32,000 nucleotides of DNA from assembly GCF_000018465.1 (NCBI RefSeq), contig NC_010085.1:1050001-1082000 (forward strand), in the 5' to 3' direction. A model generated the notes under the pieces. It was not told where the DNA came from. It saw nothing but the letters and a program-made list of their open reading frames with translations, and made no database searches. The translations under genes and the position numbers were made by a program. Positions within the stretch are counted from its first letter, which is position 1, and every line of letters begins with the position of its first letter. Source of the DNA: Nitrosopumilus maritimus SCM1. GTDB lineage: Archaea; Thermoproteota; Nitrososphaeria; Nitrososphaerales; Nitrosopumilaceae. Shown here one piece after another: positions 10,419-12,276 of this stretch.

Positions 10419-11375
10419 CTAGAATAATGTTTGGTTTCTTCCTGAAAGAACATCCATCATTCTTTTTACAGATTTTTTATCTTCTTTTTCAATTCTAGAT
10501 TTCAATGTGGTTAATGAACCAACATATTTTGAATCGCCCTTAGTTTTTCTAGAGTATGCCAAAATATAGTATTCAATATTTCCAGGAATTCCACGTATAG
10601 GAATAGTTTCTCCTAATTTTTTTCCTAAAATTTCTGAAAGTTTTTCTTGATACTTATCCTCAATTGTTTGTCCTTGTGATATCTCATACAATAAAGCCTC
10701 AGCATTTTCTTCACCCCAATATTCATTCCAAGTAGATTCTGTAGATGTATCGCCCTTATCCAATTTGCCTTTAACTCGTAAAAGACCCTGAGAACCCACA
10801 TTGATCATAAAATCTTGAGCAGGAAATGAGTCGCTAAGAAATTTTAGGGTCTTCATTTTTATTTCCATACCCTCAGGATCAACAAAAGTAAAAACAATAG
10901 GATTACTAAATTTAGATTTTATATTATTAACAACATTTGAAATAACAGCATTACAATCACCTTGAATCACATTAAATTTTTCTTTAGGAAGAATTTTGTC
11001 TAAACGTTGTTCTAAAACTTGGGATTTCTTCTTATCTTTTTCAACACATACAGCATAGTCAAAATTCATGTCCGGATGCGATAACGCACAAAGAGGAGAA
11101 CCTGCTATAATATCACCAGTTTCTCTTAATTTAACTAAACCTGAACCGGAAAAAAGATCAATGTAAACAGCACCATCATAATATTTTTTTGCTTTATCAT
11201 TTCGTCTTACAACATTCAGAAAAGTAGTTTTGTAATAATTTACAGAAATTAATTTTAATGCGGTATATTCTGCATATTCATTTTTAATTTCAGAATCAGG
11301 CACTTTCTGCGCAATTTTAGTTAGAATTTCTAATTTATTTCGAATCCAATCTTCTTGTTTCATTTTAGGAGGCAA
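10419..11375 (-). CDS. Three-Cys-motif partner protein TcmP-like (methyltransferase-fold)
   Basis: AVYIDLFSGSGLV (Gly-rich, SAM motif I-like), GSPLCAL, YAVCVEKD and its position next to a Gp37/Gp68 gene fit my recollection of the TcmP family. The track start is TTG 11375 and an ATG at 11363 is an alternative. Confidence 0.6.
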   Translation of the reverse strand: MPPKMKQEDWIRNKLEILTKIAQKVPDSEIKNEYAEYTALKLISVNYYKTTFLNVVRRNDKAKKYYDGAVYIDLFSGSGLVKLRETGDIIAGSPLCALSHPDMNFDYAVCVEKDKKKSQVLEQRLDKILPKEKFNVIQGDCNAVISNVVNNIKSKFSNPIVFTFVDPEGMEIKMKTLKFLSDSFPAQDFMINVGSQGLLRVKGKLDKGDTSTESTWNEYWGEENAEALLYEISQGQTIEDKYQEKLSEILGKKLGETIPIRGIPGNIEYYILAYSRKTKGDSKYVGSLTTLKSRIEKEDKKSVKRMMDVLSGRNQTLF

Positions 11376-11436
11376 AGTTACAGTGTTACGTTATGAAATT
11401 CGCCTTAAAACATTTAAAATTAATGATTTTTAGCTT

Positions 11437-12276
11437 ATGTCATTGGCAATTGGGTCGGGGATTGAGTGGACAGAGGCAACGTGGAACCCCACAAGTGGCT
11501 GTTCAAAAATTTCTCCAGGTTGTAAAAATTGCTATGCAGAGACACTTACTAAAAGATTGAAAGCTATGGGGCAACAAAAATATAAAAAAGGATTTCAATA
11601 TGTGGAACACCCTTCAGATGTCAATCTACCACTAACATGGAAAAAGCCCAAAAAGATTTTTGTTAATAGCATGTCAGATCTTTTCCACGAAAACTCAACA
11701 TTTGAGTTTACAGGCAAATGTTTTGCAACAATGATTCAGGCTGATCGTCATGATTATCAAATTTTAACAAAACGTCCAAAAAGAATGGCAGAATTCTCAA
11801 AAATATTTTTTGAATATTTTGGTCATAAAATTCCTAATTTCATGTGGATGGGAACAAGTATTGAAAATAAACAATATGTTTCAAGAATCAAAGATCTTCG
11901 AAAAGTCAAATGCCATACAAGATTCATTAGTTTTGAACCTCTTATTGGTTCAGTTGGAAAAGTGAACCTAAAAGGTATTGATTGGGCAATAATTGGAGGA
12001 GAAAGTGGTCATCATTTTAGAAAAGTAAAGAAAGAATGGATTGAAGAGATAATTGATCAATGTAAAGAACAAGAAGTTCCAGTATTTTTCAAACAATGGG
12101 GAGGATTCAGACCAAAATCTGGAGGAAGAACAATTAACAGAAGAAAGTATAGTGAATATCCAGAAATTGAGAAAAGAAATTCTTTGAAAAATGTTAATTT
12201 TGATGAAATTGCCTTTGCAGAAATGTGTATGAAACACGAAGCAATGAAAAGGGAACAAATGCTTGTAAAAAATTAA
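11437..12276 (+). CDS. Phage Gp37/Gp68 (DUF5131) family protein with an N-terminal three-Cys motif
   Basis: The opening [27 protein letters not shown] is the family signature. The later WAIIGGESG segment is also typical. ATG start. Confidence 0.8.
   Translation: [279 protein letters not shown]

Follow-up and report, generated by a model that had tools for sequence, protein, structure and literature searches.

[quoted passage not shown] Among other systems that resemble parts of the locus described here, DarT and spore photoproduct lyase (SPL) have thymine in DNA as their target, viperins are established as radical SAM enzymes that synthesize antiviral nucleotides, and RlmJ is the m6A2030 enzyme of 23S rRNA. 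To our knowledge, the description of SPL mentions no methyltransferase-fold partner. Phage M6 gp53 provides a precedent for an SPL-like radical SAM enzyme that acts on DNA (PMC8989533). The PDC candidates are mostly unvalidated (PMC12988326). A literature search on the TcmP and DUF5131 families (including PDC-M30 and COG4422) found no functional study, in agreement with the initial annotation of this DNA, which had described the gene pair as having no demonstrated function; a search for PDC-M41 found no mention.

The window, a stretch of 32,000 nucleotides from Nitrosopumilus maritimus SCM1, contains a Nitrosopumilus copy of this catalogued two-gene cassette. The features of the locus are as follows.

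9089-10267, minus strand: DarT-macro neighbour, outside the cassette; 392 aa, Pfam DarT and Macro domains
10268-10418: gap of 151 bp between the stop of TcmP and the start of DarT-macro, both genes being on the same strand
10419-11375, minus strand: TcmP; 318 aa, carries VYIDLFSGSGLV, TIGR04474 match
11376-11436, no strand: divergent intergenic spacer between TcmP and DUF5131; 61 bp
11437-12276, plus strand: DUF5131 (phage Gp37-Gp68); 279 aa, PF07505 match

The coordinates of both genes of the pair and the lengths of the two gaps in the initial annotation match the sequence exactly. TcmP opens with a TTG codon, which is consistent with the N-termini of its homologues (MPAK.../MSPK...); translation could alternatively begin at an ATG that lies four codons downstream. 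Within the spacer, an A/T-rich, TATA-box-like element, CTTAAAACATTTAAAA, occupies positions 11404-11419, with its TTTAAA 19-24 nt upstream of the DUF5131 ATG. The element is kept in four Nitrosopumilales pairs and is doubled in one locus (L003), where the spacer is 114 bp long. This pattern suggests that the element may serve as a promoter. The 151-bp gap upstream of DarT-macro has a TTTAAAA element of its own, about 30 nt before the ATG.

Both family assignments in the initial annotation were confirmed by profile searches. The TIGR04474 HMM matched TcmP at 100.4 bits (cutoff 53, E 1.6e-28) over residues 38-284, while a Pfam scan of this protein gave zero matches. PF07505 matched DUF5131 at 294.9 bits (gathering score 28.9, E 6e-88), covering model positions 2-242 of 243. 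TIGR04474 calls for a neighbouring PF07505 protein, and the DUF5131 gene is 61 bp from that of TcmP, on the other strand; PDC-M41 calls for both of its component HMMs to match adjacent genes, and PDC-M41A matched TcmP at 70.8 bits and PDC-M41B matched DUF5131 at 333.1 bits. DUF5131 also matched PDC-M30B and PHROG 2045. The pair is a member of a large family; TcmP by itself accounts for 6752 clusters at 50% identity, with representatives in archaea, in bacteria, on plasmids and in temperate phages.

To characterize TcmP, we examined its AF2 model (pLDDT 89.5). Foldseek found 236 matches in the PDB at E<=1e-3, and the 50 listed all belong to the class I SAM methyltransferases or, like spermidine synthase, are closely related to them. 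Among the matches listed, the best TM-scores were to the RlmJ family (2oo3 and 4blu), and Trm1, TYW4 and RsmD-like enzymes were also matched. The similarity (TM 0.34-0.47) is mainly to the common Rossmann core and therefore says little about the substrate. The TcmP profile matched two RsmD-like structures, 2fhp and 2esr, and motifs I-IV are in register in the alignment; the sequence similarity is marginal (E 0.0085). Motif I reads D73-L-F-S-G77-S-G79, in which D73, G77 and G79 each recur in 90% or more of 39 diverse members, and E112, the acidic motif II, is conserved in at least 90% of 25 closer relatives. Other conserved sites are G92-S93-P, N142 and a motif IV-like D166-P-E-G. The predicted structure and the profile match thus place the Gly-rich loop, noted earlier as methyltransferase-like, in a class I SAM methyltransferase fold. 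By its Rossmann fold, motif I and acidic motif II, TcmP has the features of a class I SAM-dependent methyltransferase; methyl transfer itself would be no more than a possible activity, since motif IV reads DPEG and not DPPY.

DUF5131 was examined for a relationship to radical SAM enzymes. Near its N-terminus, C22, C29 and C32 form a CX6CX2C motif that is invariant across 28 diverse members at 31-89% identity; this is the three-Cys signature recognized earlier, and it aligns with the canonical radical-SAM cluster motif in hhalign. Against the PA0069-type radical SAM partners the probability was 77% (E 2e-5) and the Cys motifs fell into line with each other; comparison with four SPL-like partners gave nothing significant. 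Canonical members of the radical SAM superfamily have CX3CX2C and match PF04055; the motif of DUF5131 is CX6CX2C, and its Pfam scan returned PF07505 only, with no match to PF04055 (Radical_SAM) or PF20903. Sub-threshold matches were seen between DUF5131 and TIGR04471 (radical SAM mobile pair protein A), and between PF04055 and the DUF5131 domains of two fusion proteins (P0266 and P0294). A sequence search against PDB chains gave zero matches. The best PDB fold match of the barrel in the AF2 model (pLDDT 84.3) is spore photoproduct lyase 4fhg, a weak match (E 8e-3, TM 0.46), and the viral fold matches of the model are mostly radical SAM proteins. SFLD/RadicalSAM.org places DUF5131 in Megacluster-5-2, adjoining spore photoproduct lyase in 5-3 (PMC9477430). 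The best reading of these models and alignments is that DUF5131 would be a divergent barrel of the radical-SAM-superfamily type.

The extent of the conserved unit was determined by comparison with related loci. The tblastx similarity to seven such loci is limited to about 10410-12267, and the flanks are unrelated; homology that ends at the two-gene boundary (10410 and 12267) indicates a self-contained two-gene cassette. A partner gene adjoins TcmP in 25 of 29 genome loci, the other four being cut by contig ends, which bears out the earlier view of the pair as a conserved neighbourhood. The partner is DUF5131 in 17 of the 29 loci, in divergent, convergent or co-directional arrangement, and in eight it is replaced by a canonical radical SAM protein of the PA0069/Rv2578c/SPL type. 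The pairing is obligate in these loci, and the partner appears always to be a radical SAM protein of one lineage. It also occurs on plasmids, in Gordonia phages and in 3 viral contigs. Three proteins (P0266, P0294 and P0295) are single-chain fusions in which an N-terminal DUF5131 part is joined to a C-terminal TcmP part, and one locus (L019) carries two units of an SPL-like radical SAM protein and TcmP in tandem.

The two members of the pair have diverged at different rates. In the pairs compared, DUF5131 was always the more conserved of the two, with identities for DUF5131 and TcmP of, for example, 89/81, 87/69, 60/44 and 86/25%. Judged by these identities, TcmP evolves much faster than its DUF5131 partner, and it can be swapped. 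The cassette has a patchy, mobile distribution, and its insertion sites differ even within a single genus. In one Nitrosopumilus genome DUF5131 is kept and TcmP has been cleanly lost. DUF5131 is common in actinophages (180 phage records), where it is among the early genes of many, and TcmP was detected in very few phages: two queries gave three records each, and both missed a further case, Angelique gp43. The abundance of DUF5131 in phages with rare TcmP, together with the loss of TcmP in Nitrosopumilus, suggests that DUF5131 can persist, or act, alone.

We then considered the DarT-macro gene, which the initial annotation had joined with TcmP and DUF5131 in a single three-gene DNA-modification or defence module. 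Its product has a DarT domain (PF14487) at residues 16-202 and a Macro/DarG-like domain at 215-382, and NCBIfam DarT/DarG models also match it. It has 2404 relatives at E<=1e-20; the best 120 of these are 385-433 aa long, and most of them are annotated with both domains in precomputed Pfam data. The neighbours differ in every relative examined. DarT or macro genes were found in none of the 29 TcmP loci within 10 kb on either side, and in none of four additional DUF5131 loci from Nitrosopumilus, for which 6 kb on each flank was covered. The pair was absent beside the three closest DarT-macro relatives (85%, 70% and 65% identity), which have other neighbours. Among 80 DarT-macro loci the pair was found once (1 of the 38 whose flank reaches 3 kb or more on one side), in a bacterial metagenome contig, L084, with DarT-macro at 1249-2418 on the plus strand and DUF5131 at 2757-3485 and TcmP at 3500-4333 on the minus strand. 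This trio sits between housekeeping genes, and its order and orientation are unlike those in the window.

That the three genes are directly adjacent in the window and co-occur independently in L084 speaks for a module whose parts act together, as does the fact that DarT and SPL-type radical SAM enzymes both act on DNA thymine (PMC8989533 for the SPL-like enzymes). By chance, some 500 kb of DarT flanks would be expected to contain roughly 0.002 TcmP genes, if the share of TcmP among clusters (6752 of 1.84 billion) is used as a proxy, so that some non-random co-residence is likely. Against such a module stand the near-absence of linkage in either direction, including the closest DarT-macro relatives, the end of similarity at the two-gene edge and the different gene order and orientation in L084; the TTTAAAA element before the DarT-macro ATG would point the same way. 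The pair moves independently of DarT-macro, which means that there is no conserved three-gene module. This is essentially the outcome that the initial annotation had named as telling against its own proposal. A module of three genes as an obligate unit is largely refuted, and we consider joint action of the three highly improbable. DarT-macro is an independently distributed one-gene unit and not part of the cassette.

The genomic context of the pair may point to a conflict-related role. In two Gordonia phages, Angelique and BaxterFox, TcmP lies within the lysogeny module, where it has a 4-bp overlap with the end of the immunity repressor gene. In S. meliloti, TcmP is listed with Hna among the genes upregulated in a nolR+ strain (SMa2243 and SMa2245; PMC12445080). 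Restriction-modification genes, IS elements and helicase-nuclease genes adjoin some copies, the defence genes at a minority of loci. A PADLOC scan of 150 TcmP neighbours gave a few restriction-modification, helicase and DRT matches, which are suggestive only, as a single protein often matches several models and the counts have no background. No restriction-modification-type nuclease or effector is linked to the pair; the conserved unit is two genes, and the neighbours vary. As a two-gene modification system, the pair would have no obvious effector, which counts against the reading proposed below. An integrated element around the pair, bounded by a tRNA and an integrase, was also considered and dropped: an ARAGORN call of tRNA-Trp at 6579-6669 was not confirmed by Rfam, an integrase-like ORF at 19322-20524 falls under the family cutoffs, and no att-like direct repeats were found.

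This context also bears on the possibility that the pair serves DNA repair, with an SPL-like lyase guided by a base-flipping methyltransferase-fold protein to reverse lesions, and has no role in defence or modification. Such a function would fit the closest solved fold of DUF5131, the 'DNA repair photolyase'-type families (PA0069/Rv2578c/SPL) to which the alternative partners belong, and the presence of DUF5131 among the early genes of many actinophages. It fits poorly with a patchy, mobile distribution and varied insertion sites within one genus, with the rapid divergence of TcmP and the swapping of partners, with the position beside prophage immunity repressors, and with the flagging of the pair as a defence candidate by PADLOC on the basis of guilt by embedding. 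We regard a repair function as distinctly unlikely.

Taken together, we consider it probable that 10410-12276 is a mobile two-gene cassette for one two-component radical-SAM enzyme that acts on a nucleic-acid base in a conflict-related role, with DarT-macro separate. The cassette would spread horizontally and encode both components of the enzyme. The three invariant Cys residues of DUF5131 would hold a [4Fe-4S] cluster, which would cleave SAM to give a 5'-deoxyadenosyl radical. TcmP, a putative SAM-binding, methyltransferase-like Rossmann-fold protein of the RlmJ/RsmD type, would act in a complex with DUF5131. We infer that the fast-evolving TcmP most likely selects and presents the substrate, possibly with methyl transfer as well, and that the radical chemistry would fall to the conserved DUF5131. 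A nucleic-acid base is the most likely substrate. DNA is favoured because thymine derivatives in DNA are the targets of spore photoproduct lyase and of the SPL-like phage M6 gp53, the closest characterized relatives of the radical partner. The biological role is most likely conflict-related, either defence or self-marking, and the enzyme would be borne by variable or defence regions of the genome. DarT-macro would not be a third subunit; it would be a one-gene cassette of its own that arrived separately in this variable region.

The substrate could also be of a different kind. The pair may target RNA (tRNA or rRNA), a free nucleotide or a small molecule, for example in a toxin-like RNA modification or in the synthesis of a viperin-like antiviral nucleotide. 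RNA or a small molecule is made possible by motif IV of TcmP, which reads DPEG/DPYG, and by its best folds (RlmJ, Trm1, TYW4 and RsmD-like), which are RNA and not DNA methyltransferases; the viperins offer a precedent. On the other hand, the fold likeness of TcmP is mainly that of the Rossmann core, and those relatives of the radical partner whose function is known act on DNA (PMC8989533). We consider a target of this kind unlikely. Returning to the two-component enzyme acting on DNA, a more specific version can be offered tentatively: TcmP and the SPL-clade DUF5131, as a widespread two-component system, might put on or remove a radical-derived modification of a DNA base, perhaps thymine, for immunity or self-marking, with TcmP as the rapidly diversifying specificity subunit and the rare co-residence with DarT-macro in the window and in L084 reflecting a synergy of two thymine chemistries.

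If the proposed chemistry is right, nucleic-acid modification or immunity would have a new route, by way of radical SAM enzymes. To the catalogue entry the present analysis adds a radical-SAM-like partner of one lineage, single-chain fusions and a fast-evolving, swappable TcmP, and it removes the misleading lead of a conserved three-gene module with DarT-macro, which does not exist. The repressor overlap in Angelique and BaxterFox is a further addition and provides a tractable experimental system.

The locus can be compared with four known systems. The neighbouring gene resembles the DarTG toxin-antitoxin/anti-phage system in having a DarT domain and a DarG-type macrodomain. It differs in that toxin and macrodomain are fused in one 392-aa chain, in that it lacks the C-terminal region of DarG (only positions 3-156 of the 338 in the model are matched), and in that DarT-macro is linked to TcmP/DUF5131 only by rare co-residence. 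SPL and SPL-like enzymes provide the closest solved fold to DUF5131 and share its RadicalSAM.org megacluster, and SPL-type or PA0069-type radical SAM proteins occupy the slot beside TcmP where DUF5131 is absent; DUF5131, however, has CX6CX2C instead of CX3CX2C and is shorter (279 aa). Phage M6 gp53, a thymidine-hypermodification isomerase, is described without a methyltransferase-fold partner (PMC8989533).

With the RlmJ/RsmD-type N-methyltransferases, TcmP shares the class I Rossmann fold and the order of motifs I (DxFxGxG), II (acidic), III and IV (D-P-x-x), and with RlmJ also an inserted helical subdomain. Its motif IV is DPEG/DPYG and not DPPY, lacking the aromatic residue of the latter; it has an N-terminal helical extension with an invariant Lys41, and it is always paired with a radical SAM or radical-SAM-like enzyme. 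The closest system is the TcmP/DUF5131 pair itself (TIGR04474/PF07505, PDC-M41): both proteins in the window score above the thresholds, their genes are adjacent, and they carry the three-Cys motif and the Gly-rich SAM loop. Within this family, other TcmP subtypes score 175-220 bits against TIGR04474 and the Nitrosopumilus copy 100 bits, and in copies from bacteria, plasmids and phages the two genes run co-directionally or convergently, whereas the archaeal Nitrosopumilus subtype is divergent, with its two genes head-to-head.

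Three ORFs of the window are considered here, and their coordinates in the initial annotation matched the ORF list exactly:

10419-11375, (-) strand, TcmP (three-Cys-motif partner protein), 318 aa, including VYIDLFSGSGLV
11437-12276, (+) strand, DUF5131 (Gp37/Gp68 family), 279 aa
9089-10267, (-) strand, DarT-macro, 392 aa

TcmP is separated from DUF5131 by 61 bp and from DarT-macro by 151 bp. Pfam identified PF07505 in the DUF5131 gene at 294.9 bits and DarT and Macro domains in the 392-aa gene, and gave zero matches for the 318-aa TcmP protein. PADLOC recognised TcmP and DUF5131 as components A and B of the candidate defence system PDC-M41; PHROGs holds a family for DUF5131 and none for TcmP or DarT-macro. 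The family interpretation first given to the pair was correct, and the pair is already catalogued (the definition of TIGR04474, the NCBIfam TcmP model, and PDC-M41). Close homologues are from Nitrosopumilus and related Nitrososphaerota, which identifies the window as thaumarchaeal, and its G+C content of ~33% is in keeping with this.

To define the unit, we compared the window with seven related genome loci using tblastx. The similarity was confined to ~10410-12267, and the flanks beyond were unrelated in all seven genomes. The same divergent pair, with TcmP 81% and 69% identical, has wholly different neighbours in the two nearest complete genomes. We then surveyed 29 TcmP loci from GTDB species representatives. 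DUF5131 adjoins TcmP in 17 of them; the arrangement is divergent in all eight Nitrosopumilales-type loci and convergent or co-directional in other archaeal and bacterial pairs. Eight further loci are without DUF5131 and have instead a canonical radical SAM protein bearing PA0069/Rv2578c/"mobile pair B" or spore photoproduct lyase (SPL) signatures, and the remaining four end at contig edges. A Bathyarchaeota contig (L019, 6950-10948) contains two units of SPL-like radical SAM and TcmP in tandem, and a radical SAM protein adjoins TcmP on a Halocatena plasmid, while an Acetobacter plasmid has an operon of Gp37/Gp68 and TcmP. At two other loci (L021 and L022), a single TcmP is adjoined by two distinct radical SAM genes, one PA0069-type and one SPL-type. 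Furthermore, when 1.84 billion cluster representatives were searched with a profile, 6752 clusters were assigned to the TcmP family, three of which (P0266, P0294 and P0295; metagenomic, 578-629 aa) are single-chain fusions with DUF5131 N-terminal and TcmP C-terminal. Because adjacency is obligate, the interchangeable partners belong to one enzyme lineage and fusions exist, we argue that TcmP and DUF5131 work together as one enzyme.

The structure model of DUF5131 is an alpha/beta barrel (pLDDT 84.3), and the closest solved structure is SPL 4fhg, a weak match (E 8e-3, TM 0.46). In a viral structure library, many matches are annotated as radical SAM, and two strong matches are unnamed or uncharacterised proteins. 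Alignment with hhalign to the PA0069-type TcmP partners (77% probability, E 2e-5) placed GC-x6-GC-x2-CY of DUF5131 in register with the canonical GC-x3-C-x2-CY, together with the subsequent strands. All 28 archaeal, bacterial and phage members compared keep the three Cys, with variable spacing, and NCBIfam gives "radical SAM mobile pair protein A" as a sub-threshold match. In RadicalSAM.org, DUF5131 constitutes Megacluster-5-2, and the neighbouring 5-3 is SPL (PMC9477430). The window protein did not match Radical_SAM in the Pfam scan; we therefore infer its Fe-S and SAM chemistry from homology.

The TcmP model is confident (pLDDT 89.5, pTM 0.89) and gave 236 PDB matches in Foldseek at E<=1e-3, the best 50 of which are all class I SAM methyltransferases or near relatives, such as spermidine synthase; among the matches listed, the top TM-scores were for the RlmJ family (2oo3 and 4blu). 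The TcmP profile also matches the RsmD-like methylases 2fhp and 2esr, weakly, and in this alignment DLFAGSG, the acidic residue that follows strand 2, a GDxN segment and FVDP-x-x register with motifs I-IV. K41, G92, S93 and D166 never vary in a highly diverse set of 39 members, and D73, G77, G79, N142, R200 and Y269 are nearly invariant. Motif IV is not DPPY but DPEG (DPYG in the subtypes of bacteria and phages), and methyl transfer to an exocyclic amine can therefore not be taken for granted.

In every comparison DUF5131 shows higher conservation than TcmP, with identities to the window of 89/81, 87/69, 64/61, 60/44 and 47/25% (DUF5131/TcmP). One Nitrosopumilus locus (L122, 4817-6840) has a DUF5131 86% identical to that of the window and a TcmP of a different subtype, which is 25% identical yet scores 220 bits to TIGR04474. 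In L119 (5142-6840), whose genome is a sibling from the sample that also yielded L003, TcmP is cleanly missing and DUF5131 (87% identical) remains at the same locus; in another genome (L120/L121, 5062-6834), IS elements (rve, DDE_Tnp_1) occupy the place of TcmP. Near-identical DUF5131 genes (86-88%) are thus seen in three states within Nitrosopumilus. Inside the 61-bp spacer lies an A/T-rich element, kept in four Nitrosopumilales pairs and doubled where the spacer is longer, which fits a putative shared TATA-type promoter region.

In Gordonia phages Angelique (MH651167; gp42-gp44) and BaxterFox (KU963263; gp42-gp43), TcmP runs convergently to DUF5131 and shares 4 bp with the end of the immunity repressor gene. 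The Angelique TcmP, annotated "methyltransferase", scores 125 bits to TIGR04474. The overlap falls inside the integrase-repressor lysogeny module, a position typical of prophage-encoded defence genes. In BaxterFox, DUF5131 is an unannotated frame of ~243 aa (~32.2-32.9 kb; L113 5993-6721), 43% identical to that of the window and convergent with TcmP gp42; the deposited gp39-gp41, which overlie it on the opposite strand, are probably mis-annotated. DUF5131 occurs in 180 phage records, mainly of actinophages and mostly without detectable TcmP. Some copies of the pair adjoin R-M genes, a PLD-SNF2 protein or other defence-type genes, and the genes upregulated in a S. meliloti nolR+ strain include TcmP and Hna (SMa2243, SMa2245; PMC12445080). 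Overall, the genomic contexts of the pair point to genetic conflict. Our literature search found no functional study of the TcmP/DUF5131 pair, and a 2026 survey describes validation as pending for most PADLOC PDC candidates (PMC12988326).

The DarT-macro fusion is genuine and widespread: 2404 proteins are related to it at E<=1e-20, the best 120 of which are 385-433 aa long, most with both domains in precomputed Pfam annotation, and metagenome contigs gave 362 matches. The DarT toxin ADP-ribosyltransferase and a DarG-type macrodomain share one 392-aa chain, which lacks the C-terminal region of DarG. The contigs examined show the gene by itself, with R-M, PIN, Mrr and helicase genes around it. 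The initial annotation had put forward DarT-macro, TcmP and DUF5131 as a candidate three-gene module, which the comparison does not support. The 29 TcmP loci and four additional Nitrosopumilus DUF5131 loci all lack a DarT or macro gene, and neither TcmP nor DUF5131 was found near the closest DarT-macro relatives (N. zosterae 85%, others 70% and 65%), whose differing neighbours include PIN, MT-A70, SNF2, Mrr, an N6/N4 methyltransferase and a DEAD-MZB helicase. Among 80 DarT-macro loci (~500 kb total flank; 38 of them flanked by 3 kb or more on one side), the pair was present in one (L084), where housekeeping genes enclose DarT-macro followed by DUF5131 and TcmP in convergent orientation. The low frequency and differing architecture exclude an obligate three-gene module. 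That they can share a variable or defence region is probably not random, because the chance expectation for this single co-occurrence is ~0.002, with cluster frequency as a rough proxy.

Several other features of the window were noted. The genes flanking the cluster, 7913-9058(+) and 12348-13745(-), have signal-peptide-like N-termini, in agreement with their earlier description as secreted-protein genes; they have zero Pfam matches and are not kept beside the pair in relatives. Small GIY-YIG-like proteins of 127 and 117 aa (14164-14547(-) and 14779-15132(-); matches weak or at threshold) enclose a 76-aa hydrophobic ORF. An MT-A70-family methyltransferase (16715-17632(-)), of a family also found near DarT-macro in N. 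zosterae, and a 400-aa tyrosine-recombinase-like ORF (19322-20524(-); XerA 35 bits and Phage_integrase 21 bits, neither reaching its cutoff) occupy a stretch of slightly raised G+C, 0.37-0.42 against ~0.32 nearby, which is a hint of an accessory region; a search for att repeats found none. Immediately beside the integrase-like ORF, an imperfect 22-nt direct repeat (20554-20575 and 21378-21399; 86% identity) encloses a flavodoxin-like gene (20692-21237). ARAGORN placed a 91-nt, possibly intron-containing tRNA-Trp at 6579-6669(+), overlapping the ends of two ORFs and unconfirmed by Rfam at gathering threshold. The 446-aa protein at 21834-23174(-) gave strong matches to HTTM (272 bits) and to a vitamin-K-dependent gamma-carboxylase lumenal domain (158 bits), in a thaumarchaeon.

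The best-supported model of the pair is a two-component enzyme, in which DUF5131 would contribute [4Fe-4S]/SAM radical chemistry and TcmP would contribute SAM binding and substrate selection. RNA or a nucleotide could be the substrate instead of DNA, and the pair could serve in repair. By analogy, we favour DNA as the probable substrate, because thymine derivatives in DNA are the targets of the radical partner's characterised relatives, SPL and the SPL-like gp53 of phage M6 (PMC8989533), and because the contexts are conflict-related. The family is large, and the fusions, the partner rule and the copies in phage lysogeny modules offer fresh handles for testing what it does. The pair in the window is an additional archaeal member of a known two-gene system.
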